This document shows positions 4,606 to 19,589 of a stretch of 19,895 bases of DNA, one piece after another. Below the pieces are notes generated by a model. It ran no database searches, was not told the origin of the DNA, and worked only from the letters and a program-made list of their open reading frames with translations. A program made the position numbers and the translations under genes. The first letter of the stretch is position 1. Each line of letters starts with the position of its first letter. This DNA is from a virus: the IMG/VR virus record IMGVR_UViG_3300008050_000030; one strand, 5' to 3'.

Positions 4606-4616
4606 GGAGCTGACAC

Positions 4617-7600: not shown

Positions 7601-8333
7601 GCAGCTGACCTCGTCGCTGGTCAGCGTGGCCTACGCGCTGAAGATCCGCGGGGACGAGCTGCTGATCCCCGGCAGCTCCCTCCCGGACCTGCCGGCCCGT
7701 GCCGCCGCGGTGGCCGCGTCCGCCACGGACTACCTGAACCGGCGGATGTTCTACCTGTTCCCGGACTCGGTGTCGGCGGAGCTCGACGCCGGCACCGCCG
7801 TCGTGCCGGCCTACTACGCCGCCGCCGCGGTGGCGGGGCAGATCGGCCACCAGCCGCCGGCGCAGCCCCTGACCAACTTCCCCATCTCGGGGCTGAGCGC
7901 GGTCCAGGGGTCGCACGACACCTACAAGAAGAGCCTGCTCGACCAGATCGCCGGCGGAGGGGTGTACATCCTCTTCCAGCAGTCGTCGGGCGGCGCGGTC
8001 ATGTGCCGGCACCAGCTCTCCACCGACACGAGCTCGGTGGAACAGCGGGAGCTGTCCATCACCAAGGCGGTCGACTTCGTGGCCAAGTTCCTGCGGAACG
8101 CGCTGCGGAACCTGATCGGCCGGTTCAACATCACCCCGCAGTTCCTGAACAACCTCGCCACCGTGATCCAGGGCCAGCTGGCCTTCCTCGGCCCCGACGG
8201 GCTGCAGGTCATCGCGGCGGCGCAGCTGAACAACGTGCTGCAGGACGAGTCGAGCCCCGACACCATCCTGGTCGACGTGACCCTGACGCCGCTCTACCCG
8301 GCGAACCAGATCCGCGTGACTTTGGTCGTCTAG
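4617..8333 (+). CDS. Contractile tail sheath protein of 1238 aa with very large inserted domains.
   Basis: The N-terminal segment PGVTVIQEIRTTSPTIASATLPACIIGPAFQVIE carries the GPAFQ-type motif characteristic of the T4 gp18 sheath family. The C-terminal segments LIGRFNITPQFLNN and TLTPLYPANQIRVTLVV match the conserved sheath C-terminal domain. GAGGAG lies 8 nt before the ATG. The central roughly 800 aa is Ala/Gly/Thr-rich and contains internal domain repeats. The gene is followed by a putative tube gene. Confidence 0.82.
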   Translation: MPAIPQPGVTVIQEIRTTSPTIASATLPACIIGPAFQVIETQVDGLLSADALATSYSQYPLSLSQSSFPDPRGNISELDIQEDTVEASLFYGGSLIALPRGDGSPFGSAFLAASNVASRAVIVTDFGETTPWALADGDVLVLAFDRPSAVDTSQDVTVTISAAAPVATAAEVASAINAAVGEDVASVVVGGASEVMIRSNTWGALSSIDIRAGGSAMTAMFGDTQSRRVEGSGYRAQDDSDGDLVSPWIEFFEGEAFQNGVAGSWGGAGLGLGRWTEAGTISNADAALLSFTGGGADIPLQAASSVRAGDAMVSDGVDPGWEVVEVQASRFRMAQLNSALSTFDDEGNATTRFYDDREVNVPSHGVPFAPRNVWFEAQGLQWGSVSPAPVAAVLTGNLAANAAQKAEVQSDGSLTSAALAGTLALAGLTLITQLVDDGISQTQVTSTLAGTAANTVQLAAALDALAIPGIDAWNVFDDGANVWIHAQTTKTGSGQTLVVLPTGTANAMLGFSVALATSHTGKDQEYGTPATETGGTIGALPIATLSGTAVTVVVTDSRGTFTKVHTMGAAEAADATLADLATELNLQANQLAWAGNIRIGTFSGPAAATGELVFTSFESGDGVTVAVSDDSGGGGTLDMTNAPVAGAGTLSGTTLQHSLDGGDAITVTFGSDSLDDAVAAINLAHGGAAIASISTTFMRLTSPLGGVASSIDVDAASTADSILGFLPANDEAAGSGRPNPDCFLDLSGNLVLGAGILRNSLTGAPFVPASAGLYVAYEALRLDVSSSSAAVEKLLTIEDQATLEAIGEPIDARNPLFLGMYLALLNSPTTAITGIGVDEVSAAQPEGTLDGYARAFDYLEAKDVYAMAPLTENELVHLVLDTHVTAMSAAEQRGERIGLIAPEAPTRAFPAAVASGIGDSTANPNEMTIDVNPTGQLVAAGLNPAALDADDGVYLEVTVGGDFRRYSLSLVNGTLLQFRNSFSSPDNDDGFYTTTQLTSSLVSVAYALKIRGDELLIPGSSLPDLPARAAAVAASATDYLNRRMFYLFPDSVSAELDAGTAVVPAYYAAAAVAGQIGHQPPAQPLTNFPISGLSAVQGSHDTYKKSLLDQIAGGGVYILFQQSSGGAVMCRHQLSTDTSSVEQRELSITKAVDFVAKFLRNALRNLIGRFNITPQFLNNLATVIQGQLAFLGPDGLQVIAAAQLNNVLQDESSPDTILVDVTLTPLYPANQIRVTLVV
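8306..8333 (+). repeat. Upstream copy of a 28-bp imperfect direct repeat that encodes the sheath C-terminus QIRVTLVV plus stop. Its partner lies at 9311-9338.
   Basis: ccagatccgcgtgactttggtcgtctag compared with ccagatccgcgtgaccctggtggtctga. All four differences are synonymous or a stop-codon swap. Confidence 0.85.
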
Positions 8334-8379
8334 CGTAAGTTCCACTAGGTGTGTGGTAGGCTGTCTCTCGGAGGTAGCT

Positions 8380-9324
8380 ATGCCCGGTGGACGGCCCAAG
8401 AAGATCAAGCCCCCTTGCAAACTCGACGGCTGCGAGAAGCCATCGAAGTCCAGAGGGATGTGCGGCACGCACTACATGCAGCTCCGTCGCGGCGCCATCG
8501 ACGAGCGCGGTGCCTCGCTGCGGCCCATGAAGCAGGGCCGGGACGGCGGCTGTGAAGTCGATGGCTGCGGTGACCCGATCGTCGCCCGTCGGATGTGCAG
8601 CAAGCACTACCAGCGGCGGATGTCGGGCGCTTCGGGGGAGGCGAGAGAGCGCCACGCCAACCACTCCCGTGAAGGCGTGTGCAGGCTGGAGGGGTGCGGC
8701 AGGGAGATCGAGAATGGAAGAGTCCGGATGTGCCGTCGCCACTACGCGCAGTACTATCGCCGGATCATTGATGAGGACGGAGTCCGGCTCCGGGAGTTGA
8801 AGAGGGTCCCGTCAGCGGAGGGCCTGGCCTGTTCCGTCCCAGACTGCCACTCCCGGCCGACGAGGCGCGGCATGTGCCAGAAGCACCGGAGGCAGGAGCA
8901 GGCGGGCCTGATTGACGAGCAGGGCAACAAGCTCCGAGAGCACAAGACTCGGGGACGGCCCAGAAGGAAGGCCCGCTGGAGGACCTCGGGCGGGTACGTC
9001 CGCAAGCACGCGCCGGAGCACCCCAACGCCGACAAGTACGGCAACGTCCTGGAGCACCGTCTGGTGATGGAGGCCCATCTCGACCGACTTCTTGGCCCGA
9101 AGGAGGTCGTGCACCACATCAATGGGAAGCGGGACGACAACCGCCTGGAGAACCTGCAGCTGCGTCAGTGGACCACGCACCCTCCTGGATCAGAGCCCGT
9201 GGACGACATCGAGGCCGCCCTGGGGCTTCTGGAAGAGCGCTTGACCAAGAACACCACGGGCGGTGAGGCTCACTTGGAGAGGCTCCAGGACCTGCTCGAT
9301 CGGGAATCGGCCAGATCCGCGTGA
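8380..9324 (+). CDS. Free-standing HNH homing endonuclease with four N-terminal tandem Cys3His zinc-finger-like repeats.
   Basis: The C-terminus reads VVHHINGKRDDNRLENLQL, which is the HNH motif. There are four repeats of C-x3-(G/D)C-x7-9-C-x2-H(Y/R)-x3-RR. GGAGG lies 6 nt before the ATG at 8380; the ORF track's 8353 start lacks an RBS. Codon usage is rich in AGA and AGG, unlike neighbouring genes. The gene is flanked by a duplicated sheath 3' end. Confidence 0.85.
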   Translation: MPGGRPKKIKPPCKLDGCEKPSKSRGMCGTHYMQLRRGAIDERGASLRPMKQGRDGGCEVDGCGDPIVARRMCSKHYQRRMSGASGEARERHANHSREGVCRLEGCGREIENGRVRMCRRHYAQYYRRIIDEDGVRLRELKRVPSAEGLACSVPDCHSRPTRRGMCQKHRRQEQAGLIDEQGNKLREHKTRGRPRRKARWRTSGGYVRKHAPEHPNADKYGNVLEHRLVMEAHLDRLLGPKEVVHHINGKRDDNRLENLQLRQWTTHPPGSEPVDDIEAALGLLEERLTKNTTGGEAHLERLQDLLDRESARSA

Positions 9325-9471: not shown

Positions 9472-10284
9472 ATGACGTACCAGTTCCCTCTCGAGCCCGG
9501 ACAGGCTCCCCTCTCTGTCACCGTCGAAGGTGGCGATCCCTGGGGCGACCGTCGTCTGCACCGCAAGCACGACGCCCGTTGGCGCGGCATCGCCCGACAG
9601 TTCGTGGACGAGCGTGCTCCTGGCGGAGTCGGCTACATCCGCGTCATCGACTTCGCCAACCACGTGGACGGGGAAGACCTGACCCTCGGGTCGCGGATCT
9701 ACGAGCTGGACACCGTGCCGGATGGAGTCACCGCCGGCTCCGTCGCCGTCGACGTCAGCGGCGTCGGCTCGAACGCTGACCTCGCAGTGGAGATCGCAGC
9801 GGCCATCAACGGTGACGCGGACCGTGAGGTCGATGCGGCTGTCGTCGACACCGACAAGGTGGTCTTCCTGCCGCGCACCAACTGGGGTGCCGCGGGCAAC
9901 CTCGCCATGGTGTCCACCATCAACGTCCTGGATGTTCCGGCTCCCGCTGCGCTCATGACCGGGGGCGAGCTGCCTGCGGCCATCCGCCGCTGCCAGGGCT
10001 CCTACACCGTGACGCTGGCCGATGTGACGGCTCTCACCGCCGGCGACGTCATTCCCGTCGGCTCGGTGCCGTGGACCAACGCCCCGGCCTGGACGCATCT
10101 CCAGCTCGAGTCCAGCGTCGGCCTGCTCAAGCCTCTCTCGGGCGAAGCCGGTGCCGTCGACGCAGCCACCTACGGCTGGGTGCAGGTGAACGCCAACCGC
10201 CGAGCCCTGCTCGTCTCCGCCACCGTGGTGTCGGGACTCCCCTTCGCCGCCGGCGACGTCCTCCACTGGCAGACCTCGGTCTGA
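9472..10284 (+). CDS. Hypothetical tail protein (270 aa) carrying one copy of the roughly 70-aa domain that is tandemly repeated inside the sheath insertion region.
   Basis: ADLAVEIAAAINGDADREVDAAVVDTDKVVFLPRTNWGAAGNL aligns with sheath AAEVASAINAAVGEDVASVVVGGASEVMIRSNTWGALSSI and with DDAVAAINLAHGGAAIASISTTFMRLTS. GC3 is high. The gene lies between the sheath/HNH genes and the tube gene. Confidence 0.55.
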   Translation: MTYQFPLEPGQAPLSVTVEGGDPWGDRRLHRKHDARWRGIARQFVDERAPGGVGYIRVIDFANHVDGEDLTLGSRIYELDTVPDGVTAGSVAVDVSGVGSNADLAVEIAAAINGDADREVDAAVVDTDKVVFLPRTNWGAAGNLAMVSTINVLDVPAPAALMTGGELPAAIRRCQGSYTVTLADVTALTAGDVIPVGSVPWTNAPAWTHLQLESSVGLLKPLSGEAGAVDAATYGWVQVNANRRALLVSATVVSGLPFAAGDVLHWQTSV

Positions 10285-10297
10285 GAAGGAGCCTCTG

Positions 10298-11056
10298 ATG
10301 GCCCAGCTTTCTGGATGGTCGCCCTACGACAGCTACGTGCAGGGCGGCATGATCGACGGCCGGTTCATGTCGGCCGCCTTCACCCTCATCGCCGCGGGAC
10401 CCCCGCGTCTGGCGGCGGTGGCAGGTGGGAACGGAGATCTCGGCTCCCCGGCCGAGTTCGCCTTCCCCATCGGCGTGGTGCAGAACTTCAACCTCTCCCA
10501 CAACCGGCAGTTCAGCCGGTTCTGGGAGGTCGGCTCGGAGCGCAGCTACTTCATCAGCGGCCGGACCATGGGGCAGATGTCGCTCTCGCGCATCATGTAC
10601 CACGGGTCCTCGCTGATGCGGGTGCTCTACGCCTACTACCAGGACCTGATCCCCGACACGGGGGCCTCGTTCGCGGCCATGTTCGACAACCCCGGCATCG
10701 CCGGCGTCGCCAACAAGCACGACGTCGTCATCCCGCCGGGCTACGAGAACGTGTTCCTGAACCTGGCCTCGGACCTGTTCGCCCAGCCCATCGGCATCCT
10801 GCTGTACTTCCGCGACAGCAACATGGCCACCCTGGGGGCCGGGTACCTCGAGTCCTGCTACGTCCCGGCGATCAACCTCGCCTCGGACTCGCAGGGCACG
10901 GTGATCCAGGAGTCGGCGCAGATCCAGTTCGAGCGGATGATGCCCATCGACGTCAACGCGGTCGCCCTGATCCGCGGCGGCATCGATGAGCTGATCCCCG
11001 GCGCGGACATGCTGCCCTCCGGGTCCATCCCCTCGGGAGGATTCCCTCCGGGGTAG
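10298..11056 (+). CDS. Putative tail tube protein (252 aa).
   Basis: The gene sits in the position downstream of the sheath. GAAGGAG lies 7 nt before the ATG. There is weak motif resemblance to the gp19 tube family (P-x-G-V-V-x7-NRQ...). It is followed by a strong terminator. It is larger than typical tube proteins, so confidence is moderate. Confidence 0.45.
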   Translation: MAQLSGWSPYDSYVQGGMIDGRFMSAAFTLIAAGPPRLAAVAGGNGDLGSPAEFAFPIGVVQNFNLSHNRQFSRFWEVGSERSYFISGRTMGQMSLSRIMYHGSSLMRVLYAYYQDLIPDTGASFAAMFDNPGIAGVANKHDVVIPPGYENVFLNLASDLFAQPIGILLYFRDSNMATLGAGYLESCYVPAINLASDSQGTVIQESAQIQFERMMPIDVNAVALIRGGIDELIPGADMLPSGSIPSGGFPPG

Positions 11057-11077: not shown

Positions 11078-11108
11078 GAAGGCCCTCGTGTGACCCACGA
11101 GGGCCTTC
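11078..11108. terminator. Bidirectional intrinsic-terminator-like hairpin between the convergent plus-strand tail genes and the minus-strand operon.
   Basis: A perfect 13-bp stem, GAAGGCCCTCGTG and CACGAGGGCCTTC, encloses a 5-nt loop (tgacc). It lies 22 nt after the tube stop and 6 nt after the stop of the minus-strand gene ending at 11114. There is no strong T tract on either side. Confidence 0.6.
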
Positions 11109-11113
11109 GTCGT

Positions 11114-11851
11114 TCAGAAGGTGGAGCTGATGAAGCGCTTGTTCCACCAGGCGTAGCGGACCGCCGTGAAGCCCAGGGGCAGGGCCGACTGCGTCTTCCA
11201 GAGCAGCGACCCCTCGGAGGTCCACTCGATGTCCACTCCCGCCTCTACGTCGGCCTGGACAGCCTGCAGGACGGCCTGCTCCAGCTCGATGCCGAGTTCC
11301 ACCCGCCCCTCTCCGTAGAAGGAGAACTTCAGCCACTCGGCGTAGACCGTCGACTCGACGATGTCGACTTGCCGCTCGACGGGGAAGCCCGCGCGCCTGG
11401 ACTTCATCAGCCGCACCACCTCCCGCATGTCCCCGCAGTCCAGCGAGGAGTTGACCATCTGCAGGTAGTCCAGATCGGTCAGGTAGTCCGGCTCGCCGAT
11501 GCGGTTGAGCTCGTCGTGCACCAGCTTCTTCTGGGTCAGCGGACCCACCTGCACCTGGACCTGCTTGCCGACGGAGAGGCCGGCACGCAAGGAGGCGATC
11601 TGAGGCACCCCCACCTTCAGGCCGGCGTTCGGCACCGACACGGTGTGGGTCCAGTGGTCCAGCAGCGCGGAGGACTGCAGGGGCGGGCTGATGCTCAGGT
11701 CCTCGGGGAAGCAGTCCAGGTCCGCCAGGTGCTGCAGCACCTCGCCCTGGTTGTTCAGCAGGGTGCCAGGGGTGATGTCCTCGCTGGGGAGGCGGAGCAG
11801 GTAGATCCGGTGCTTCTTCAGGAAGCGTCGCAGGGGCTGAAGCAGGCTCAC
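11114..11851 (-). CDS. Hypothetical 245-aa protein, the terminal gene of the minus-strand unit, with its own strong RBS. It is a candidate effector or toxin-like cargo.
   Basis: A GTG start at 11851 is preceded by GAGGTGATCC, a near-perfect anti-SD complement. It is separated from the upstream RHH gene by a 123-bp spacer containing direct repeats. It has a basic N-terminal helix (LRRFLKKHRIYLLRLP) and an aromatic C-terminus (YAWWNKRFISSTF). I could not recognise a family. Confidence 0.6.
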   Translation of the reverse strand: MSLLQPLRRFLKKHRIYLLRLPSEDITPGTLLNNQGEVLQHLADLDCFPEDLSISPPLQSSALLDHWTHTVSVPNAGLKVGVPQIASLRAGLSVGKQVQVQVGPLTQKKLVHDELNRIGEPDYLTDLDYLQMVNSSLDCGDMREVVRLMKSRRAGFPVERQVDIVESTVYAEWLKFSFYGEGRVELGIELEQAVLQAVQADVEAGVDIEWTSEGSLLWKTQSALPLGFTAVRYAWWNKRFISSTF

Positions 11852-11950
11852 GGATCACCTCAAGCTAAGAGAGGGGCGGGTCCGGGGGATCAGTCCCAGC
11901 GCGAGGAGGAGAGATGTACGCCGAGCTGCAGACCCACGCCCTCCCCGACA

Positions 11951-11971
11951 GCGTGACGGGGAGGGCGTGAC
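11951..11971. promoter_or_regulatory. Direct repeat GCGTGAC occurring twice with 14-bp spacing, in the spacer between the RHH gene and the terminal 245-aa gene. It is a candidate RHH operator.
   Basis: GCGTGAC lies at 11951-11957 and at 11965-11971. It is immediately downstream of the RHH stop and upstream of the RBS of the 11114-11851 gene. Confidence 0.3.
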
Positions 11972-11974
11972 AGG

Positions 11975-12172
11975 TCAAGGTTCCTGGGGCAGCAGGGTCT
12001 TGGTGTTCAGGAGCACATCGTCGCGCTCCAGGCGCTCCCGGACGTCGTCGAGCAGCGCGTTGGTCACCTCCGAGACGGAGACAGTCCTCCCCCGCTCCCG
12101 CTCCGCTTCCGCCCGAAGACGGTCGACGAGGCGAGAGTTGGGGAGGGACATGTTGATCACTCGGGAGGGCAC
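11975..12172 (-). CDS. Ribbon-helix-helix (CopG/Arc/MetJ-like) DNA-binding protein.
   Basis: The segment NMSLPNSRLVDRLRAEAERERGRTVSEVTNALL has the beta-strand, helix, helix pattern of RHH antitoxins and repressors. A GTG start at 12172 is preceded by GAGGAC with a 7-nt spacer; an alternative ATG lies at 12151. Confidence 0.55.
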   Translation of the reverse strand: MPSRVINMSLPNSRLVDRLRAEAERERGRTVSVSEVTNALLDDVRERLERDDVLLNTKTLLPQEP

Positions 12173-12402
12173 GCCAAGTCCTCGTCGACTCGACAGAGCT
12201 CATCGAACTCGTCAGCCTCGTCGACCGGGGGCGACGGCGTCTCGTCTTCCAACGGCCCCACGTCCTTCAGCGCGTCGCGCAGGGACTGGAAGACCGCCAT
12301 GCCTCCGTCGAACAGGGCCATGGACAGCCTCCCCTCCTTCCGAGGGTCGAACTTGGCCATGTAGAGCTGGTGGGCCTTGGCGAGCCACTGCTCCCGGGTC
12401 AC
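12157..12402 (-). CDS. Hypothetical small protein (81 aa) with an acidic C-terminus.
   Basis: The GTG start overlaps the upstream stop (GTGA). GC3 is high. The C-terminal tail reads DETPSPPVDEADEFDE. Confidence 0.45.
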   Translation of the reverse strand: MTREQWLAKAHQLYMAKFDPRKEGRLSMALFDGGMAVFQSLRDALKDVGPLEDETPSPPVDEADEFDELCRVDEDLACPPE

Positions 12403-12827
12403 TCGTACACCCCCTGCCCGGCCGCCTTCAGCGCCGCCTCCTGCTGCATCCGCTCCATCACGGCGGCCCCGCGCGAGCGGGAGAGGGCGATGCCCATGAC
12501 GGCGCTCGCCTCGGTGGCGCCGAGGCGGAACACGGCGTCGACGGTGTCGTCGGTGACCAGCCCGGAGTACTCGGTGATCATGTACTGGCCCAGTCCCGCC
12601 CAGACGGAGGAGAGGAGCGCGTGGCTCTGCAGGGGCCGCGCCGACATCGTGGCCATCGACAGGGGCTTGATCACCTCGTCCTGCTTGATGGGGCCGGTGA
12701 CGGCCAGGAAGAAGGAGAGGCCGGCGTCGCTGAGGATCTGGGCCGCCTCCTCCAGCTTCTGCTGCATGGTGAGGGGGTCGGTGAGGTCAGGCATGTCGGC
12801 CATGCGGGTGGGGTCGTCGTCGATCAT
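12399..12827 (-). CDS. Hypothetical protein (142 aa).
   Basis: The ATG at 12827 lies in an ATGA overlap with the stop of the vWA gene. GC3 is high. No family was recognised. Confidence 0.5.
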   Translation of the reverse strand: MIDDDPTRMADMPDLTDPLTMQQKLEEAAQILSDAGLSFFLAVTGPIKQDEVIKPLSMATMSARPLQSHALLSSVWAGLGQYMITEYSGLVTDDTVDAVFRLGATEASAVMGIALSRSRGAAVMERMQQEAALKAAGQGVYE

Positions 12828-14671
12828 CGGGCTTTTCCTGTCAGGTACTGGTGGAAGAGCTTCTCCCCGAGCGACACGAGCGCCTGCCCGGCGGAATCGC
12901 AAGGGCACTGGGAGAAGAACTTGGTGGAGTGGGACATGAACATCGCGTCTTCGTAGCTGATCTGCCCTCCCACGTAGAGGGTCTGCACGCGGATTCCTTC
13001 GCGCATGGCCTCCATGATGTTGCGGCGGACGTGGGTCTTGGCCCCCGATCCGGTGGGAGCTCCGTCGGTCAGGTGGATGAGCTGACGGAAGCCGGTCTTC
13101 GTCATCAGCTCCCGGGCCGCCACGCGAATGGCGGTGTGTGATGGGGTGGAGCCTCCGAGGATCGTGTTGTCGTTGTTGGCGGGCATCTTGCGGATGGGGT
13201 GCCCCATCCGGTGGATGACCACTTCGCTATCCCAGCCGCCGTAGTAGATCCAGACCTGCCCCTCCACGCCGGGGAAGTTCAGGGCCTTGGCCAGCTGCAG
13301 CGCTGCTCGAGCTTCCTGCTCGAACAGAGAGCCCACCACGGACCCCGAGCCATCGAGCAGGAGCAGGTACTTGAAGCCCGGCAGAGGTCGGGGAGACCGG
13401 AAGATCGGCCCCTCCTTCGTCATGCGGCGCTGCACGGCGGCCTGGATGTCCACCGTCGTCCCTTCGTAGTCCAGGTGGGTGCGCTGCTTGCCGCGGATCT
13501 TGACGAACTTCGAGTGCAGCCGCGAGGTGATCGCCAACTCCTCTCCCGTCAGCACCCGCGGCACGAGCTGCGAGTCCTGGATGTCGTGGAGCTGGACCTT
13601 GGCCTTCGCGTCCTCCGTCAGCCACTCGTCCTTGTCGGGGACGTCGGACTGCCCCGACTGCAGATCAGCGATGGTCTGCAGCATGGCGGCAGCCGCCGCG
13701 GCCTGGGTGTCGGGGTTGTCCAGGTGCTGAGAACCCCCCATGGCTGCAGCAGCCTGAGCCTGCGCTGCAGGGTCAAAGCGGTGGGCGTCCAGCTTCTTCT
13801 TGACGTACCCCTCGACGGGCGTGTCGCTGTGCCCCTGGCTCTTGAGCAGGTCGATGTCGCCTTGGCCCAGCAGAGCCATGAGGCGCAGCGCCACGGCCTG
13901 CGTCACCGCGGGATCCTGCTGCCCCGGGTCGCCCAAGAGGGTGGCCACTGCCCCGGCACCGCTCGGGGCGTTCCCGGCAGGCTGAGCGGCGGCTCCCGTC
14001 TTCTGCGCGAAGCGGTCTCCCAGGAGCTTCGTCAGCTTGGACATCAGCTTGGCCGCCGCAGCCATGCAGGAGGTGAAGTCCGAGGAGACGCAGTCCAGGT
14101 ACGCCTGCTCGATGGCTGGTTGCACGGCCAGGAAGTCTGCGTCTGCGTCAGCGGGCGCCTGGCCGAACATGCAGCTCAGCATGAACTGGAAGAAGTCCTT
14201 CTTGGCTCCCTCCGTCTGCTCTCGGCCGATCCGCTTCCACCGCGCCACCAGGAGGTCGTAGTCCCCCGGGTTGAACTGGCCCCACCAGTAGGCGACGCGG
14301 TTGTCGTCCAGGATGTTCACGACGTGGTGGATGAAGGCGGCCAGGGGCTCCGTCTGCCCCGAGAGGGTGCGGTCTCCCTTGGCCAGGAAGTCCGTGATGA
14401 TCCGGTCCGCCAGCTTGGTGGTGAAGTGGTGCATCGCCTCGATGTTCGAGCCGAAGACGATGTGGCTCAGCTCGTGGCCCGCCACGAGCCATGCCTCGGG
14501 GTCGGCGAGAGGCACGTTGACCTGCCGGCCGTCGGTGCTGCCGAAGGGAGCGTCGCGGAGCCAGATGGGCTGGCCGAGGGCTTTGCTGGTGGTGTTGACG
14601 AGCTTGTAGCAAGCGTCCTTCGTCTGCCACGCGGGTCCGCGCAGCGACGCTGGGAGAGTGAAGTCGGCCAC
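12824..14671 (-). CDS. CobT/NorD/CbbO-like partner protein (615 aa) with a C-terminal von Willebrand factor A domain and an N-terminal region containing an HExxH motif.
   Basis: The C-terminal vWA domain has the MIDAS motif LLLDGSGSV, followed by ...GGSTPSHTAI... and ...IHLTDGAPTG. The N-terminal region contains AGHELSHIVFGSNIEAMHH. The GTG start at 14671 is preceded by GAGGAGG. Its size matches phage and bacterial CobT-like vWA partners of AAA_5 ATPases. Confidence 0.75.
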   Translation of the reverse strand: MADFTLPASLRGPAWQTKDACYKLVNTTSKALGQPIWLRDAPFGSTDGRQVNVPLADPEAWLVAGHELSHIVFGSNIEAMHHFTTKLADRIITDFLAKGDRTLSGQTEPLAAFIHHVVNILDDNRVAYWWGQFNPGDYDLLVARWKRIGREQTEGAKKDFFQFMLSCMFGQAPADADADFLAVQPAIEQAYLDCVSSDFTSCMAAAAKLMSKLTKLLGDRFAQKTGAAAQPAGNAPSGAGAVATLLGDPGQQDPAVTQAVALRLMALLGQGDIDLLKSQGHSDTPVEGYVKKKLDAHRFDPAAQAQAAAAMGGSQHLDNPDTQAAAAAAMLQTIADLQSGQSDVPDKDEWLTEDAKAKVQLHDIQDSQLVPRVLTGEELAITSRLHSKFVKIRGKQRTHLDYEGTTVDIQAAVQRRMTKEGPIFRSPRPLPGFKYLLLLDGSGSVVGSLFEQEARAALQLAKALNFPGVEGQVWIYYGGWDSEVVIHRMGHPIRKMPANNDNTILGGSTPSHTAIRVAARELMTKTGFRQLIHLTDGAPTGSGAKTHVRRNIMEAMREGIRVQTLYVGGQISYEDAMFMSHSTKFFSQCPCDSAGQALVSLGEKLFHQYLTGKAR

Positions 14672-14680
14672 GGGGCCTCC

Positions 14681-14932
14681 TCAGAAGATGTAGGTGTCTG
14701 CGGGCAGAGCAGCGGTGAAGGCGTCACCGTCGTAGTGGACATCGAGCATGGCTTCGAGGAAGGCGCTGTCTTCGATGGCCTGGATGTCCCGGATGGACTG
14801 CTCCTCGATGATCTTGGTGATCGGGTAGTCGGGGGAGGAGACCCCCCAATCGACCCCGATCGACCAACGATTCACCGGTTTGTCCACCGCAGGCGACGTG
14901 ACGGTGAAGAAGGGGATGGTGTACCGCGCCAT
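14681..14932 (-). CDS. Hypothetical small protein (83 aa).
   Basis: The ATG lies 1 nt after the upstream stop (TGACATG), and GAGG lies upstream. Its own stop overlaps the RBS of the vWA gene. Confidence 0.45.
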   Translation of the reverse strand: MARYTIPFFTVTSPAVDKPVNRWSIGVDWGVSSPDYPITKIIEEQSIRDIQAIEDSAFLEAMLDVHYDGDAFTAALPADTYIF

Positions 14933-14933
14933 G

Positions 14934-15239
14934 TCAGCCTCGCGGGGTGTCGTCGTCGAGGAGTACTCGAGCGGGATGCTCCTCAGGGTCATGGTCGTCG
15001 CCGGGGACCACCTCGTAGGGCAGGAGCACGTCGCCGCTGTCGTCGAGCACGATGCCCTCGATGTGGAGTTCCCAGTGTCCCTCCTCCAGGCGTAGGTCGA
15101 AGATCGGGGTGGGCACGGCCTCAGCGTCCGCCTCTGGGTTGGCGAGGAAGCGAAGCTGCGCCGGGCCCAGGCGCTCCTTGTCCTTTCGGGACTCCAGGAA
15201 CGCCCGGACCTGTGCAGCGAATGAGAGGTCTCCCGACAT
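14934..15239 (-). CDS. Hypothetical acidic protein (101 aa).
   Basis: It has an ATG start and high GC3, and is very acidic (PEADAEAVP, DDSGDVLLPYEVVPGDDHDPEEH). Confidence 0.45.
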   Translation of the reverse strand: MSGDLSFAAQVRAFLESRKDKERLGPAQLRFLANPEADAEAVPTPIFDLRLEEGHWELHIEGIVLDDSGDVLLPYEVVPGDDHDPEEHPARVLLDDDTPRG

Positions 15240-15260
15240 GGATCTAGGGTACCTACTCGG

Positions 15261-15665
15261 TCAGGTGTGGTCGAAGACGATGAGCATCTGCCCCTCGGGC
15301 AGGCGCACATCGAGGTGCTCTTGTACGTGATCCCTCAGCACGCCCCAGAGACGTCGGGCCTGGCTGATCTTCGGCTGCAGCTCGAGCATCGTCCAGCAGA
15401 CGCTGTCGAGCTGCATGCGCAGGGCCACGATGCCCATCCACTTCTCGTCGCAGTCGGGGGAGCTGCTCTCGAAGGAGAGGTTCTCCAGCTCCGGGGGACA
15501 GGTCGCCAAGAAGTCGTCCCAGTTGTCGACCCAAGAGCCGAACTTCATGCCCCCCTCGACGGGGAACTCCTCGGGGGGAGCGACCCCCCAGATCACGGCT
15601 GCGAAGCACTCGCCCATTGGCCGTTCTCCTCGTGGTTGAAGGGTAAGAGGAAGACGCAGCTGCAT
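15261..15665 (-). CDS. Hypothetical protein (134 aa; alternative start at 15617 giving 118 aa).
   Basis: The ATG at 15665 overlaps the stop of the RNR-fragment gene by 1 nt (TGATG). An alternative ATG at 15617 has GAGGAG upstream. Confidence 0.45.
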   Translation of the reverse strand: MQLRLPLTLQPRGERPMGECFAAVIWGVAPPEEFPVEGGMKFGSWVDNWDDFLATCPPELENLSFESSSPDCDEKWMGIVALRMQLDSVCWTMLELQPKISQARRLWGVLRDHVQEHLDVRLPEGQMLIVFDHT

Positions 15666-16465
15666 CAGCTACATCCGCTGGTCGCTCCGCAGTCCTCGCA
15701 GACACCGCAGGTGCCGGACTGCTTCATCCGCATGCTCCCGCAATGGGAGCAGCTGTCGCCGGTGTAGCCGGCCCCCACCGCAATCTCCCGCGACATCGTG
15801 ACCGCGGGAGCGTGAGGGTTGCCCTTCCACGCCTCTGCGGCATCGAACTTCGCTACGGCCTCTGGAGCCGGCCCCTCTACGGGAGTGAGCAGCTCCTTGG
15901 AGGGGTGGCCCAGGGTGTCAGGACGGAGGTTCTCCTCGGTGACGTCGGTGTGCGCGAGGTCGGCCATGCCCAGGTAGCTGATGGCCAGCTCCCGGAAGAT
16001 GTAATCGACCACGGAGGTCGACATCTTGATCCGGTCGTTGCCCGTCACCATCCCGCTCGGCTCGAACCGGCTGAAGATGAACAGGTGCACGAACTTCTCC
16101 AGGGGCACTCCGTGCTGGAGACCCAGGGAGACCGCGATGCCGAAGCAGTTCATCAGCGACCGGAAGGCCGCGCCCTCCTTGTGCATGTCGACGAAGATCT
16201 CGCCGAGCGTGCCGTCCTCGTACTCTCCCGTCTTGAGGAAGATCTTGTGGCCGGCGACGCGCGCCTTCTGGGTGTAGCCCTGACGCCTGTCCGGGAGGCG
16301 TCGTCGAGAGGTCTTCTCCGCCAGAGCCTTCCAGAGCAGCTCCGGACACCGCCGGTCGACGGTGCCCTCGGCGGTCGACTCGCAGTGGCGGCAGTAGGCC
16401 ACCACTGCGCCGTCGCCGTCCGGCTCGACCCAGTCGTGATCGTACTTGGGGTCGAAGTCCGCCAC
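15665..16465 (-). CDS. Orphan C-terminal segment of a ribonucleotide reductase large subunit, most like class II adenosylcobalamin-dependent NrdJ (a split NrdJb-like piece), with a Cys-rich C-terminal tail.
   Basis: The block [112 protein letters not shown] matches the conserved C-terminal core of RNR alpha subunits. The tail [28 protein letters not shown] resembles RNR C-terminal redox or Zn tails. The GTG start is preceded by GAGGAGG. No N-terminal catalytic half of an RNR is present in this window. Confidence 0.6.
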
Positions 16466-16711
16466 CTAGTCCTCCTCGGCCTCGAAGTAGGCGAGGTCCA
16501 GGCCGGCGAGGCACTGGTCGAGCAGGTCGAAGCCGTTGGCGTACTCCACCTCGATCTTCGTGGGGACGGAGTAGCTGTCCTCCATGCCCTCGATCTCGGC
16601 CTTGCAGTCCTTGCGGCTCTTGGCCCGGACGTGGGTGGGCTCCTCGACGTTGCCGTCCTCGTCCTCTTCGTACTCGGTCAGGTCCTTGGCGAGCCAGTAG
16701 GTGAGCTTCAT
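16466..16711 (-). CDS. Hypothetical small, highly acidic protein (81 aa), a candidate DNA-mimic-type protein.
   Basis: The ATG lies in an ATGA overlap with the upstream stop. The composition includes YEEDEDGNVEEP and YFEAEED. Its stop TAG directly abuts the GTG start of the RNR fragment. Confidence 0.5.
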   Translation of the reverse strand: MKLTYWLAKDLTEYEEDEDGNVEEPTHVRAKSRKDCKAEIEGMEDSYSVPTKIEVEYANGFDLLDQCLAGLDLAYFEAEED

Positions 16712-17097
16712 GTGTCTTCTCCGGTGAGGGGGCGGATCATGTAGATCTCGTCCCCGGTTGCGCTGTCGTGGTGGAAGTTCTGCAGGCGGATCTGCTGACC
16801 CGCCATGTCGATCCAGATCTTGAAGTGGCACTCGGTCTTGGGGAGGATCTGCCGCAGCATCTCCTCGGCGTGTTCGGCGATGAACTCCTTCTGGCCGTTC
16901 GACTTTCGCCAGCCGAAGTCCTTGACCGTGGCGAGCCAGCGGCAGTCCTGCGGCATCATGCCATCGATGTGATCCTGGAAGCTCTCCAGGAACAGGGTCC
17001 ACAGTGCGGGGCCGTCCTCGCCGCTCTCCTCATCCTCGAAGCCCCAGGACAGGTTGGGCTCTCCGAACTCGGGCTCTCCGAAGGTAGGCAGCGACAT
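16708..17097 (-). CDS. Hypothetical protein (129 aa).
   Basis: The ATG at 17097 overlaps the upstream stop by 1 nt (TGATG). AAGGAGG lies 5 nt upstream. The N-terminus is acidic. Confidence 0.55.
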   Translation of the reverse strand: MSLPTFGEPEFGEPNLSWGFEDEESGEDGPALWTLFLESFQDHIDGMMPQDCRWLATVKDFGWRKSNGQKEFIAEHAEEMLRQILPKTECHFKIWIDMAGQQIRLQNFHHDSATGDEIYMIRPLTGEDT

Positions 17098-17693
17098 CAG
17101 CCCTCCTTGAGGCACCCGCACACGAAGCGGGCCTTGTTGTGTTCGACGCAGAGGCCGCACTGCCAGTGGCCGGGGGTGCCGACGGTGGGGCAGTTGAGCC
17201 TCTGCAGATCATCGTTGATCGGGTCTCTCCCGTGGAGAGCTCGGAACTCGTAGGCCGTGTAGGGATTCTCCTCCAGGTCCCGTTCCGGCCCCCCCAGCGT
17301 GATGTCGATGGTGATGGTGGTGAGGGGGTGCTCCAGCACGAGATCGTACTCAAAGAGGGAGTAGACGATCTTGGTCGGGTCCTCCTCGTCCACTTCCACG
17401 GTGACCTCGCGGGTCACGGAGTCGGGGCAGACGCGCCCGACCCGTGACCCCTCGGCGGTGTAGAGGCTCCCGTCCCCCTCCAGGCGCGCCCCTTGGGAAC
17501 GGAACCACAGCTGGAGCAGCGCCCAGTCCTGTGCCTTGTTGTGGGGGCCGGTCCTCATCTGATGGTCGCGAAGAAGCTCCTCGAGCTTCGCCTGCAGGGC
17601 TGCCAGGAACCCCGCGTTGATGTTGAACCTTCCGATGTAGCCGGTCAGCGTGTCCCGGACGATGCCCAGGAACTCCTCGTCCTGGGCAGACAT
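17097..17693 (-). CDS. Cys-rich (zinc-ribbon-like) protein of 198 aa. Its N-terminal helix and a central strand mimic the conserved C-terminal domain of the tail sheath protein.
   Basis: The ATG at 17693 overlaps the AAA+ gene stop by 1 nt (TGATG). FLGIVRDTLTGYIGRFNINAGFLAALQAKLEELL aligns with sheath FLRNALRNLIGRFNITPQFLNNLATVIQGQL, and HPLTTITIDITL aligns with sheath TPLYPANQIRVTL. The C-terminal cluster is C-x11-C-x2-C-x9-C-x-C. The ORF-track 505-aa ORF at 17097..18614 is a frame artefact upstream of this start. Confidence 0.6.
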   Translation of the reverse strand: MSAQDEEFLGIVRDTLTGYIGRFNINAGFLAALQAKLEELLRDHQMRTGPHNKAQDWALLQLWFRSQGARLEGDGSLYTAEGSRVGRVCPDSVTREVTVEVDEEDPTKIVYSLFEYDLVLEHPLTTITIDITLGGPERDLEENPYTAYEFRALHGRDPINDDLQRLNCPTVGTPGHWQCGLCVEHNKARFVCGCLKEG

Positions 17694-18691
17694 CAGGGAG
17701 TCGCCTTCCGGCGCTTCTTGGGCTTCGGCTTGGCCTTGGGCACGTCCAGCACGTTGAGGCTGGCGACGTCGACCCCCATGCGCGCCTGCACCTTCTTGAC
17801 GTAGAACTCGCGCTGCTGCGCTTCCTCGAACTTGAAGGTGGACAGGAGCAGCGCCTTGGGCACCCCCCAGAGTGCTGCGTTGCGGCAGATCTGGTGCAGG
17901 TCGGACGTGGACAGCGAGTACTCGAACGTCCCCGTCCGGGTGTCGCCGGCGAGCTCCAGCAGCATCGAGACGAAGGGCTTGTCGCCCGCGACCTTCTCGG
18001 CGAAGACGGCGTCCGGGATGGCCTTGTCGTCGTCGCAGGCCGAGGCCCGCAGCCCCATCAGGATCTTCAGCTCTTGCTCCTTGGGCGGGTAGTCCAGGAA
18101 GATGGGCTGCACGCGCCGCTTGAAGTCGTCGTTCAGGGCGTTGGTGCCTCCGTAGGCGCTGGGGTTCATGGTCATCACGACCCAGAGCTTCGCGCCGATG
18201 TCGAGGCTGAAGGCGCGGCCCAGCTTGTGGACGTTGATCGTCCCCTGGAAGTCCAGGAGCGGGTTCAGCGTCTTCTGGGTCTGGGGCCGCAGGGCGTTGA
18301 CCTCGTTGATGAGCAGGATGGCACCGTCGCCGGCCTCGGTCTTGGCGACGAAGCGCTCGTGCATCTCGTTGGCCACTTCGATGGCCGTGGTGAGGGCTCC
18401 GAGCCCGAAGAACGAGGTGTCCCCCTCGAGGCCGAAGGCGCCGATGAGGTCGAGGTCGCGGGTCTCTTCGGTGCAGCTGTACTCGATGATGGGCAGCCCC
18501 GTCTCCTGAGCGAGGGCGTAGACGGACATGCTCTTCGCCATGCCCGTGGGGCCGACGACGAGCAGGGGGTCGTGGAAGGTGGACTGGCGGAGGAACCCCA
18601 GAAGGCCGGTGCAATCGACGTAGGGGACTTCCGCCTGGAAGTAGGACTCGAGCGGCATGCGGCGCAGCTCGTAGGCAGCCTGATCAGACAA
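17693..18691 (-). CDS. CobS/CbbQ/NorQ-like MoxR-family AAA+ ATPase (AAA_5 type) with a lysine-rich C-terminal tail.
   Basis: The Walker A motif reads LLVVGPTGMAKS, the Walker B and sensor region reads AILLINEVNALRPQTQKTLNPLL, and a CobS-like MTMNPSAYGGTNALNDDFKRR motif is present. The C-terminus is KAKPKPKKRRKATP. The start is either TTG at 18691, with GGAGAG upstream, or ATG at 18658. It is the first gene of the minus-strand operon. Confidence 0.8.
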   Translation of the reverse strand: MSDQAAYELRRMPLESYFQAEVPYVDCTGLLGFLRQSTFHDPLLVVGPTGMAKSMSVYALAQETGLPIIEYSCTEETRDLDLIGAFGLEGDTSFFGLGALTTAIEVANEMHERFVAKTEAGDGAILLINEVNALRPQTQKTLNPLLDFQGTINVHKLGRAFSLDIGAKLWVVMTMNPSAYGGTNALNDDFKRRVQPIFLDYPPKEQELKILMGLRASACDDDKAIPDAVFAEKVAGDKPFVSMLLELAGDTRTGTFEYSLSTSDLHQICRNAALWGVPKALLLSTFKFEEAQQREFYVKKVQARMGVDVASLNVLDVPKAKPKPKKRRKATP

Positions 18692-18767
18692 GGATCTCTC
18701 CGGTAGTAAGAGTGGCGAGATCCTTATTGCGCAATCTCCGCTGTTCTTTCGGGGTAGAGTCTCTCGC
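18692..18767. promoter_or_regulatory. Divergent intergenic region with lower GC, likely holding promoters for the minus-strand operon and the plus-strand GT2 gene. It contains the palindrome TTGCGCAA.
   Basis: GC content drops locally (ccttattgcgcaatctccgctgttctttc). An 8-bp perfect palindrome lies at about 18726-18733. A TAGAGT -10-like hexamer lies upstream of the GT2 ATG. Confidence 0.35.
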
Positions 18768-19589
18768 ATGCCGATCGCCTCGATCATCATCCCCACCTGC
18801 AACCGCGACGCCGCCCTAGCCCGCGCGGTCAACAGCGCGTTGTCTCAGTCGATCTCGGACACCGAAGTCATCGTGGTCGACGACGCCTCGCAGGACCAGA
18901 CTGCGGAGGTCCTCAACGAGCTCCTGCGGATGGATGATCGACTGAGGGTGCTGCAACTCCCCATCCCACTGGGGTTGTCCGGAGGGCTGCAGCGGAACGA
19001 GGCCGTGAAGATGGCGCGCGGAGAGTACATCGCGTACCTCGACGACGACGACGTCCTGACCTACCGCTCCATCGAAGCACGCATCGAGTTCCTGCGGCAC
19101 CGCCCCCAGCTCGACTTCTGCTGGGGGCGCACCCTCTTCATCCGGCACACCGTGGGGCACCCAGACCTGGACGGCCGAGTTGTGGCCCGCCTGGTCAAGG
19201 AGCCGCGGCCCGGTCCCGGGGAACCGAACGGGCTTCACTGGGTGCGGGGCACCGTCATCCCTGACGAGTTCATGCACCGCGCCGGCGTCGTTGGCGAGAA
19301 GAGCGGGGTGTGGTGGCCCAGCGGGCGTGGAGAGGATCGCAAGCTGCTCCAGGCCATCATCAAGGCCGGCTTCAACGGTGCGGCCTGCGACGAGGTGGTC
19401 GCCATCTACGGACGGACGGTCGGCTACACCGACTCTGCCCACAGGCAGACGAAGGCGAGGCAGGCACGCAAGGTGAAGGGGGCGACGCAGGTGCGGCCCC
19501 CCGGTCTACGGCGGCCGGTGTCCGCCAGCGCCCGGCTCCAGCAGGCCGGGAAGGAGAGGGAGGACCATGTCCGACGCGGAGATCATTGA
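18768..19589 (+). CDS. Family 2 glycosyltransferase (GT-A fold).
   Basis: The N-terminus reads SIIIPTCNRDAALARAVNSALSQS...EVIVVDDASQD, and YIAYLDDDDVL provides the DxD motif. The layout is the classic GT2 catalytic domain. Confidence 0.8.
   Translation: MPIASIIIPTCNRDAALARAVNSALSQSISDTEVIVVDDASQDQTAEVLNELLRMDDRLRVLQLPIPLGLSGGLQRNEAVKMARGEYIAYLDDDDVLTYRSIEARIEFLRHRPQLDFCWGRTLFIRHTVGHPDLDGRVVARLVKEPRPGPGEPNGLHWVRGTVIPDEFMHRAGVVGEKSGVWWPSGRGEDRKLLQAIIKAGFNGAACDEVVAIYGRTVGYTDSAHRQTKARQARKVKGATQVRPPGLRRPVSASARLQQAGKEREDHVRRGDH

Follow-up and report, generated by a model that had tools for sequence, protein, structure and literature searches.

The IMG/VR virus record IMGVR_UViG_3300008050_000030 supplies a stretch of 19,895 nucleotides (hereafter the window) in which positions 11114-18691 form a contiguous block of minus-strand genes. 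A first-pass annotation had described this block as an operon built around a CobS-like ATPase and a CobT-like partner with a von Willebrand factor A (vWA) domain. Here we describe that pair together with the gene at the downstream end of the block, whose product appears from profile comparison to be a homologue of the gasdermins, the cell-encoded executioners of defensive death in animals, fungi and bacteria. The genes are numbered g1 to g13 in minus-strand order, from 18691 down to 11114, and the related or compared loci are called L001-L023. Twelve genes had been counted earlier; we found 13, and the same 13 minus-strand genes were returned by an independent gene caller on a 188,377-bp, 67% GC, myovirus-like metagenomic contig (L010; ERZ27249009 k141_382418) that carries the identical sequence. 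The large open reading frames (ORFs) of the block have a third-position GC content of 0.80-0.94, and the GC content (63-73%) and gene content of the window fit a portion of a large myovirus genome. We assign the block to an uncultured, ~150-190-kb, high-GC myovirus lineage, having analysed a ~20-kb stretch of the 188-kb genome.

The gasdermin-like gene and its leader

The last gene of the block, g13 (11114-11851, minus strand), has a GTG start following GAGGTGA and encodes a 245-aa protein that had been called unclassifiable. Profile searches place it as a gasdermin homologue. It matches the PADLOC bGSDM model at 3.4e-11, in an alignment that ends at model position 223 of 257, and the same model is matched by all five of its syntenic orthologues and by 12 of the 14 members of the wider family. 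NCBIfam prok_gasdermin is matched by nine of those 14 (best 2.3e-5). The top two PDB matches of the family profile are the Vitiosangium bGSDM entries 8sl0 and 7n51 (E 0.009 and 0.013), collinear with it over query positions 8-221 and chain positions 10-215, and hhalign gave E 4.6e-5 at a probability of 68%; single-sequence PDB searches with distant family members gave no match. With the bacterial gasdermins of Runella, Vitiosangium, Bradyrhizobium and Lysobacter the protein thus has in common profile matches along the whole pore-forming domain, a similar size and the N-terminal motif L..GY.hh.LP...I.P.

It differs from them in what it seems to lack. The g13 protein ends 17 aa past the strand that aligns to Vitiosangium residue 215 (of the 266 aa in the Vitiosangium chain, 237 make up its active form), and all family members stop ~17-20 residues past the last aligned strand, whereas the canonical proteins run on for ~50 residues that hold the cleavage loop and the inhibitory peptide. 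The family lengths (219-250 aa, 14 members) equal those of the toxic fragments of characterised bGSDMs from which the C-terminal domain (CTD) has been deleted, residues 1-246/247. Taken together, the alignment ends and the lengths suggest that g13 has no C-terminal inhibitory peptide. The N-terminal cysteine that is the palmitoylation site of bGSDMs is absent from the first 10 residues of all 14 family members. The caspase-like, CHAT or subtilase protease that neighbours bacterial gasdermins is missing as well: neither these domains nor a trypsin domain was found in the block or its flanks, and the sole protease candidate near g13 is an HExxH domain in g9, four genes upstream. A gasdermin-type protein without an inhibitory domain, as g13 would be, has a precedent in fungal RCD-1, which has the pore-forming domain only and is activated without proteolysis (PMC13475620); RCD-1, however, is eukaryotic and is activated when two allelic variants interact in allorecognition, and no second paralogue was seen here.

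The family is also tiny, unlike that of the bacterial proteins, and its members in these phages are virus-encoded and sit as conserved genes in a syntenic position. It has 13 cluster representatives among 1.84 billion proteins, to which a profile search added none; tblastn with g13 gave no match in 50,697 phage records, and the family profile gave none in a scan of IMG/VR. In one review the sole viral gasdermin homologues are regulatory-domain decoys of poxviruses (PMC10989679), and our literature search, whose coverage was incomplete so that a prior report is possible, found no report of a phage-encoded pore-forming gasdermin. A gasdermin-like gene conserved in phages would be a known kind of protein in a new setting.

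The most distant member of the family (23-31% identity) was seen in L012 (4556-7138), in a setting that resembles a chromosome, with redox and metabolic genes around it; there it is convergent with a gene for a 598-aa protein that holds a transglutaminase-core domain (a cysteine-protease fold).

Between g12 and g13 lie 123 nt, too long a spacer for translational coupling, and this leader holds two elements. Directly past the g12 stop is a GC-rich hairpin with an 11-bp stem (11937-11967, minus strand), a terminator or attenuator candidate from its sequence and predicted fold; hairpins are kept at this position with changed stem sequences in L006, L004/L015 and L018, and analogous ones occur in L001 and L008. 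Further on, after a C-rich run and 11 nt ahead of the g13 start, stands the heptamer CTTAGCT (11863-11869, minus strand). The window has a single copy, where 0.46 would be expected by chance; each related locus has one plus-strand copy, invariably just upstream of the unit whose last gene is the gasdermin-like one (L001 12998-13004, L006 12957-12963, L004 4377-4383, L018 1361-1367, L008 13043-13049 and L021 921-927; L008 has an extra copy on the minus strand at 5208-5214). Its distance from the start codon varies (0, 11 or ~100 nt): in the window, L006 and L004 it stands ahead of the Shine-Dalgarno sequence; in L018 it directly adjoins the ATG of the gasdermin-like gene, and in L001, L008 and L017 that of a ~70-aa ORF overlapping this gene; in L021 it heads a unit of AAA gene, tRNA genes and gasdermin-like gene. 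No Rfam family matched in the g12-g13 leader. From its placement the heptamer could be a phage-specific promoter, a transcript 5' end or leaderless start, or a processing signal. Given the hairpin and the conserved CTTAGCT leader, we read g13 as a unit of its own.

In three lineages a small ORF of ~52-71 aa overlaps the start of the gasdermin-like gene (L001 13005-13214, L008 13050/13098-13256, L021 4754-4969). It is translationally coupled with that gene and unrelated to g12, and its product might be regulatory or might inhibit in trans. An in-frame ATG right after CTTAGCT in L008 suggests that this ORF is longer than called.

The ATPase/CobT-like pair and the rest of the block

The operon opens with g1 (17693-18691, minus strand; TTG start following GGAGAG), a 332-aa MoxR-class AAA+ ATPase. 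The earlier assignment to AAA_5/MoxR was sound: g1 matches Pfam AAA_5 at E 1.5e-14 (54.6 bits; gathering cutoff 22), and its closest PDB entries are the midasin AAA domain (1e-14), CbbQ and NorQ. Its best PHROG is phrog_249, labelled "porphyrin biosynthesis" and representing the phage CobS family (4.7e-17); the NCBIfam CobS equivalog was not matched, the best NCBIfam match being a weak one to GvpN. The Walker A motif is of MoxR type (GPTGMAKS), and sensor-1 N176, R193 and R270 are invariant in the lineage. In the Walker B motif (LLINE, 18295-18312) the Asp is replaced by N or S in four of four lineage members (LLINE, FMISE, LLLNE), while the catalytic Glu130 and the Asn that follows it are invariant in g1 and its L001, L006 and L008 orthologues.

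In every lineage that keeps g1 its vWA partner, g9, is found on the same strand. In the window this gene (12824-14671, minus strand) encodes a 615-aa CobT-like adaptor with a helical, zincin-like N-domain, a low-complexity linker at about residues 225-345 and, C-terminally, a vWA domain bearing a MIDAS (metal ion-dependent adhesion site). On its own g9 scores weakly on vWA models (E 0.011), and the evidence that upholds it as the 615-aa vWA partner named earlier consists of profile and structure comparisons. Across six g9 homologues, down to 36% identity, the MIDAS (DGSGS...T...D) is invariant, and so is GHELSH near the N-terminus, in which the HExxH motif (H66-E67-L-S-H70) falls on a predicted helix at residues 60-72; no peptidase family model matched g9. 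The AlphaFold2 (AF2) model has a predicted local distance difference test score (pLDDT) of ~75-87 in both domains. In whole-model fold searches, which are dominated by the vWA domain and do not classify the N-domain fold separately, the vWA domain is closest to that of NorD of the NorQD complex. Full-length Foldseek matches among viral models are the CobT-like proteins of Gordonia phages, Brevibacterium phage Cantare, Thermus phage P74-26 and haloarchaeal tailed viruses; ORF892 of Acidianus two-tailed virus (ATV) ranks 34 among the structural matches (E 1.3e-4).

In the published description of true CobT an M48C-like domain (P19-E224) stands at the N-terminus, then comes a disordered linker and last a vWA domain, which has a MIDAS and is itself extended N-terminally; an HExxH motif or zinc site is not mentioned (bioRxiv 10.64898/2026.07.21.739949). 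The topology and boundary of the g9 N-domain in the AF2 model equal those published for the M48C-like CobT_N, and the CobT domain plan proposed for g9, with a NorD-like vWA domain, is borne out by model topology, Foldseek and the invariant MIDAS. The label "CobS-like plus CobT-like" for g1 and g9 is thus right at the level of architecture. As for function, neither g1, g9 nor three relatives matched NCBIfam CobS or CobT at E<=0.1, Pfam CobT_C reached E 0.11 at best and in one of six g9 relatives, and CobN (about 1200 aa) was not found in the window or in any of the ~20-kb related loci. Because the curated CobS and CobT models are unmatched and CobN is missing, "cobalamin biosynthesis" is a name here, not a demonstrated function.

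Compared with the CobS-CobT-CobN system, then, the pair has the same motor-adaptor logic, domain order and domain boundary, but there is no CobN, the HExxH is invariant and the vWA domain is nearer to NorD. NorQ/NorD and CbbQ/CbbO each consist, by the accounts given in PMC13036017 and PMC9976466, of a hexameric motor, one adaptor and one client. Both NorQ and CbbQ are sequence matches to g1; unlike here, where no client is evident, their clients are known host enzymes encoded nearby (cNOR and Rubisco), and the g9 N-domain is CobT-like, not NorD-like.

The pair had been suspected to belong to a conflict system of a kind not yet described, but the same ATPase and "CobT" genes are already annotated in cultured phages. 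Gordonia phage Woes has overlapping genes for an ATPase (gp81) and a "CobT" (gp80; L023 7798-9714), and in gp80 the HExxH is intact (HEIGH at residue 96; HEIGHILHGS, against HELSHIVFGS in g9), so that both proteins carry HExxHI[LV]xGS. To judge from sequence and architecture, g1/g9 is a divergent member of this gene pair, and the "CobT" annotation in Woes probably hides a zincin-like domain common to the CobT-like proteins of phages. The likeness lies in the arrangement: an ATPase gene followed by, or overlapping, a gene whose ~600-700-aa product has a helical N-domain with HExxH, then a linker of low complexity and, C-terminally, a vWA domain, amid small, tightly packed genes without assigned function (Woes gp81/gp80, GMA7, P74-26 and haloarchaeal viruses). 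The differences lie in the sequences and the setting: g1 is 22-29% identical to the other ATPases (22% to those of Gordonia phages, 28% to the haloarchaeal one), and tblastn does not detect g9; the ATPase of Woes is extended by 200 aa at its N-terminus and has the canonical DE in Walker B, as against the N/S-E of the g1 lineage; and here the pair adjoins tail genes, with a gene for a gasdermin-like protein downstream of it. The phage "CobT" proteins, which are widespread, keep their zincin motif intact on a domain of the CobT/M48C kind. This argues against a plain cobalamin-biosynthesis annotation and turns their function into a testable question.

Directly downstream of g9 is g10 (12399-12827, minus strand; 142 aa), which overlaps the g9 stop and matches no family. 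In the syntenic lineages that have a vWA gene, homologues of g10 with 31-59% identity follow it directly, and L021/L022 are without both genes; on these comparisons g10 is a third conserved core gene. It is followed by g11 (12157-12402, minus strand), an 81-aa acidic protein with homologues in closer relatives only and no family match, and g12 (11975-12172, minus strand), a 65-aa protein 63-66% identical to its counterparts in L006 and L004 and 39% identical, over a 46-aa local match, in L018. A ribbon-helix-helix fold had been proposed for g12; no Pfam ribbon-helix-helix model matched and the best PDB E-value was 0.22, so that the pattern is suggestive by eye alone.

The genes between g1 and g9 are less widely distributed. 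The 198-aa g2 (17097-17693, minus strand) has a C-terminal Cys cluster, matches phrog_24363 (unknown function) at 4e-5 over residues 146-188 and has orthologues only in the relatives of the 71% type. The small proteins of the operon are, as had been noted for some of them, strongly acidic, namely g3, g4, g6, g7, g8 and g11. The 129-aa g3 (16708-17097) has 25 D+E against 10 K+R and the 81-aa g4 (16466-16711) 23 against 8; both are on the minus strand, without family match, and have orthologues in L006/L013 only. On the same strand follow, beyond g5, the 118-aa g6 (15261-15617; 118 aa also in the L010 gene call), without family match and with 121-aa orthologues 51-64% identical; the 101-aa g7 (14934-15239), an ORF with neither a homologue in any related locus nor a family match; and, immediately upstream of the vWA gene, the 83-aa g8 (14681-14932), which is 38% identical to a 74-aa protein of L004/L014 and whose slot is filled in other lineages by an unrelated gene for 85-101 aa. 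The orphan ribonucleotide reductase (RNR) fragment reported earlier is a genuine piece of NrdJ. This gene, g5 (15665-16465, minus strand), encodes a TSCPD domain (Pfam 3.9e-10) and a Cys-rich tail and matches phrog_84, the C-terminus of the RNR large subunit (6.7e-14). Against NCBIfam NrdJ it gives 8.9e-80 and 2.6e-52, in each case confined to the C-terminal part of the model (positions 966-1104 of 1222 and 738-960 of 960), and its 269 bits against a cutoff of 1737 exclude a full-length catalytic subunit; by sequence it is a stand-alone C-terminal fragment of a class II (B12-dependent) RNR, present in relatives of the 71% type only. No PADLOC model besides bGSDM matched any protein of the block. 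Transmembrane (TM) segments were absent from g1-g13 (maximum 19-residue Kyte-Doolittle score <=1.30), and therefore there is no holin within the block.

The N-terminus of g2 had been called a mimic of the sheath C-terminus. A resemblance is indeed seen, resting on 11 identities in 27 positions (E 0.006) between g2 residues 12-38 (VRDTLTGYIGRFNINAGFLAAL, window 17580-17660) and sheath residues 1159-1185 (LRNALRNLIGRFNITPQFLNNL). The sheath segment is a helix in the C-terminal domain, and the g2 segment is also a weak tblastn match on the sheath gene of L021.

The operon had been described as translationally coupled, with an overlap or abutment at nearly every junction, and at nine of the 12 junctions the genes do overlap or are spaced by <=9 nt. 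The g1/g2 and g2/g3 junctions are TGATG (1-nt overlap), g3/g4 and g9/g10 are ATGA, and g11 and g12 overlap by 16 nt, the g12 start being placed at the GTG at 12172 because 65-aa orthologues support it. Also as first described are the GTGA of g10/g11, the TAG-GTG abutment of g4/g5, the TGAcATG of g7/g8 (1-nt spacer) and the 9-nt spacer with GAGGAGG between g8 and g9. Coupling does not extend to g5-g6, g6-g7 (21-nt spacer) or g12-g13. The third TGATG of the earlier count, at g5/g6, is probably unused: orthologues measure 118-121 aa, for which reason we adopt the short 118-aa form of g6, starting at the internal ATG 15617 with its own GAGGAG ribosome-binding site (RBS) after a 47-nt spacer. It follows that the last gene is not alone in having its own spacer and RBS, and there are two ATGA junctions where three had been listed. 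The packing had also been taken to imply fixed stoichiometry; since the plus-strand tail genes are packed equally tightly, overlapping by 4-13 nt, tight packing is a trait of this genome and no evidence of a stoichiometric machine.

Separability of the two units and competing explanations

The relatives, recovered through the g9 and g13 proteins, comprise several lineages of 62-67% GC whose sheath is 54-74% and whose tube-like protein is 62-92% identical. They have a common order, in which a family-2 glycosyltransferase (GT2) gene is divergent from the AAA gene and the vWA gene, g10, small genes and the gasdermin-like gene follow, the last facing the tube-like and sheath genes. In the distant lineages, where g1 is 49%, g9 35%, g10 33% and g13 36-42% identical, the ATPase and vWA genes are parted by one unrelated small gene or ~70 nt. 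The AAA and vWA genes are, as anticipated, co-conserved in every relative that retains the pair, but the idea of a fixed 12-protein machine does not hold, with g2-g8 absent or replaced in more distant lineages, g2-g7 found in the 71%-type lineage only and g7 in this phage only. The core is g1, g9, g10 and g13, and g2-g8 are variable passengers. Beyond these relatives, megablast of the block and tblastn of g9 against phage records gave no match, scans of IMG/VR with g9 and g1 gave none, and a scan of GTDB genomes with the g9 profile gave none, so that neither a host nor a prophage was found.

Within this synteny the gasdermin-like gene and the ATPase/CobT-like pair come apart. L021 and L022 have the same sheath and tube-like genes, with the gasdermin-like gene kept beside the latter, and an 18-tRNA array and a 506-aa nSTAND3/AAA protein replace the MoxR/vWA operon (in L021 the 18 tRNA genes form two arrays; region 73-917 and 2782-4702). 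In L011 and L019 the gasdermin-like gene occurs without the pair in the ~4.2 kb and ~2.2 kb covered upstream of it. Conversely, Woes has the pair and no gasdermin-like protein. The pair without the gasdermin-like gene and the gasdermin-like gene without the pair make these two separable modules.

The reading that we favour, to which we would give an even chance, is that the two units also work separately, the operon as a motor-adaptor remodeller and g13 as a gasdermin-family pore-former that permeabilises the host. Unit 1 is g1-g12, a tightly packed operon whose conserved core is the CobS/CobT-like pair plus g10. By analogy with CobSTN, NorQD and CbbQO, g1 would form the MoxR-class AAA+ ring motor, the zincin-like (M48C-type) N-domain of g9 would dock on it, and the NorD-like vWA/MIDAS domain, at the end of a flexible linker, would grip a client protein that ATP hydrolysis by g1 then remodels or loads with metal; g10 may take part. 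The small acidic proteins, the Cys-rich protein and the NrdJ C-terminal fragment of g2-g8 are swappable passengers. Unit 2 is g13 with its own RBS, upstream hairpin and CTTAGCT leader element. The g13 protein ends about where bacterial gasdermins are cleaved and therefore should need no protease; made late under separate control, it would permeabilise the host inner membrane, either in a holin-like lysis role or in terminal host killing. A more specific proposal, which we hold only tentatively, is that a lineage of large phages replaced or supplemented its holin with a naturally CTD-less, protease-independent gasdermin, retained beside the tail genes with a conserved control element of its own, that opens the inner membrane when infection ends, the MoxR/zincin-vWA pair perhaps acting as a timing device.

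We consider a lysis role because of a muralytic neighborhood in L011 and L001, the missing CTD, the absence of a TM protein from the block and the behaviour of g13 as a core gene. In L011 (3046-4933) and L019 (1616-2873), otherwise unrelated phage-like contigs, a 173-182-aa protein X directly precedes the gasdermin-like gene; in L011 X is itself preceded by a stand-alone transglycosylase-like protein (phrog_4067, phrog_196), which places the gasdermin-like gene two genes downstream of the latter, and L001 (5175-6756) has a homologue of X at a distance of two genes from a Peptidase_C92/NlpC-P60-like protein. Protein X may belong to a lysis cassette. The proposed role, a timed lesion of the cytoplasmic membrane that ends infection, is that of a phage holin; holins, however, are small proteins with 1-4 TM helices, whereas g13 is without a TM segment and its pore would be a beta-barrel, so that the likeness is one of working, not of membership. 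An immune-type death system is already put to such use by the phage-derived gene transfer agent (GTA) of Caulobacter, whose gasdermin-less LypABC serves particle release (PMC13236601).

Several points weigh against this reading. The similarity of g13 to gasdermins is remote (prok_gasdermin ~20 bits against a curated cutoff of 100), and its AF2 model, built from a 3-sequence alignment, has a pLDDT of 33, so that the gasdermin fold is unconfirmed. Inhibitory peptides can measure as little as 17 aa (PMC13475620), and VRYAW..RF, an aromatic tail conserved in g13, could be such a peptide. With ~20 kb of the 188-kb genome covered, the usual holin/endolysin cassette may lie elsewhere, and g13 and the tail genes occupy opposite strands. 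For unit 1, no client of the MoxR/vWA pair is evident at the locus, and the N/S in place of the Walker B Asp may weaken the ATPase activity of g1. The adjacency of g9, g10 and, after small genes, g13 in at least five lineages could, moreover, be a functional link.

That last point leads to the alternative which survives best, although we think it unlikely: an integrated system in which the gasdermin is under the control of the MoxR motor and the zincin/vWA adaptor. The binding target of the vWA MIDAS would be g13 itself or a small inhibitor (for example g12 or, in other lineages, the overlapping small ORF), and extraction by the AAA+ ring or cleavage by the HExxH domain would time pore formation. 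The order g9, g10, one or two small genes, g13 is held at only 35-40% protein identity, but the lineages are collinear over the whole region, so that adjacency is not independent evidence. The HExxH is invariant and 43 of 50 bacterial gasdermins adjoin a protease (bioRxiv 10.1101/2021.06.07.447441), yet Woes and other phages carry the HExxH-CobT-like pair without a gasdermin, L021/L022 carry the gasdermin-like gene without MoxR/vWA (as do L011 and L019 over the upstream stretches covered), and g13 seems to have no cleavable CTD. A HEASH-motif protein precedes the gasdermin-like gene in L020 but shows no homology to g9. The ~70-aa ORF overlapping the gasdermin start in L001, L008 and L021 would suit an inhibitor, whereas the hairpin and separate leader element divide g13 from the operon. 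The idea that an HExxH protease activates the gasdermin was downgraded on these grounds: the motif is generic to phage CobT-like proteins, the gene persists without MoxR/vWA, and no CTD is apparent.

Somewhat further down we would place a conflict module, an improbable reading in which g13 and its neighbors serve abortive infection or superinfection exclusion carried by the phage and directed at its competitors among phages, or g13 is a decoy that blocks gasdermin-activating proteases of the host, the acidic proteins being anti-defence factors. Strong acidity is typical of DNA-mimic anti-defence proteins, and six small proteins of the operon (g3, g4, g6, g7, g8 and g11) are strongly acidic in a part of it that varies among relatives. 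Gasdermins are known as bacterial anti-phage effectors, and the poxvirus homologues interfere with caspases (PMC10989679); a decoy, however, should still have the CTD and the cleavage loop, both apparently missing from g13. In L021 the same-strand unit begins with an nSTAND3/AAA protein. On the other side, bGSDM alone among PADLOC models was matched, there is no sensor or caspase-like protease nearby, and g13 behaves as a conserved syntenic core gene rather than a sporadic moron.

Auxiliary metabolism we rate lower again, as doubtful: g1/g9, as CobS/CobT, would recruit the CobN of the host and raise cobalamin for a B12-dependent RNR of the phage, with g5 in the same nucleotide-supply function. 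The domain plan of g9 is that of true CobT, the best PHROG of g1 is the phage CobS family, the phage homologues are annotated CobS/CobT, and in the 71%-type lineage a NrdJ fragment lies between g1 and g9. That fragment is missing from the distant lineages that keep g1/g9, though, and no locus has CobN; the curated CobS and CobT models are unmatched (GvpN being the best for g1, and CobT_C reaching its E 0.11 in a single relative), the g9 vWA domain is structurally nearest to NorD, and the HExxH, invariant here, goes unmentioned for true CobT. Least probable by far is that the MoxR/vWA pair is a virion-assembly chaperone that aids assembly or remodelling of the large tail with its 1238-aa sheath, a role that Scheele et al. 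(2011) reportedly proposed for p618/p892 of ATV: the block always lies beside sheath and tube genes, ORF892 is among the g9 structural matches and the g2 N-terminus resembles a sheath helix, but L021/L022 have the same sheath and tube genes without MoxR/vWA, the Woes pair (in a 74-kb phage) stands among small hypothetical-protein genes in a stretch where tail genes are not annotated, and transcription of the block runs counter to that of the tail genes.

A gasdermin that is conserved in a phage core genome and apparently independent of cleavage would add a new type to the proteins with which phages lyse or kill their hosts. Mechanistic work would gain from it a minimal gasdermin that is naturally "always-on", and it would bear on the exchange of gasdermins between bacteria and phages. 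Should the more specific proposal of a gasdermin in place of, or beside, a holin hold, the pyroptosis executioner fold would serve bacterial viruses as an offensive lysis tool, beyond its role in cellular defence.

Flanking genes

On the tail side, the block is convergent with a plus-strand gene for a 252-aa protein (10298-11056) without family match, whose designation as tube protein follows from its position and its high conservation alone (62-92% among relatives) and which invariably abuts the gasdermin-like gene. Between it and g13 is a perfect palindromic hairpin with a 13-bp stem (11078-11108; fold -36 kcal/mol), so the bidirectional terminator postulated there is real as a structure and a candidate for that function. 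A scan of the window for sigma-70 promoters and intrinsic terminators gave matches at chance level only. At the other end, 76 nt (18692-18767) separate g1 from the divergent plus-strand GT2 gene (18768-19589; Glycos_transf_2 1.9e-28), which is syntenic wherever that flank was recovered (L001-L003, L006-L008, L010, L013 and L017; L009 ends before it).

The tail sheath gene (4617-8333, plus strand) encodes 1238 aa and matches phrog_279 at 1.1e-15 on residues 1058-1238. The match thus takes in ~180 C-terminal residues, and the other ~1050 have no family match but are 54-74% conserved in relatives. It is followed on the same strand by an HNH endonuclease gene (8353-9324; HNH_3 and HNH PHROG matches) that has no counterpart at this place in L001, L004, L006 or L008 and looks like a recent homing-endonuclease insertion into the tail module. 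The 270-aa protein encoded next (9472-10284, plus strand), between the sheath and the putative tube gene, is weakly and locally similar to part of a sheath protein, and some relatives have two or three tandem diverged paralogues of it (L018 2870-4276; L021 6449-8722).

One metagenomic contig, Ga0080013_1000005 (303,591 bp), carries two copies of the region from GT2 through AAA, vWA, gasdermin-like and tube-like genes to the sheath, one of the 71% type (L013, 120045-141892) and one of the 36% type (L017, 170329-192341), about 30 kb apart (28.4 kb between the two ranges analysed). Either two related phages that occur together were joined in a chimeric assembly, or the contig is one genome whose tail region is duplicated.

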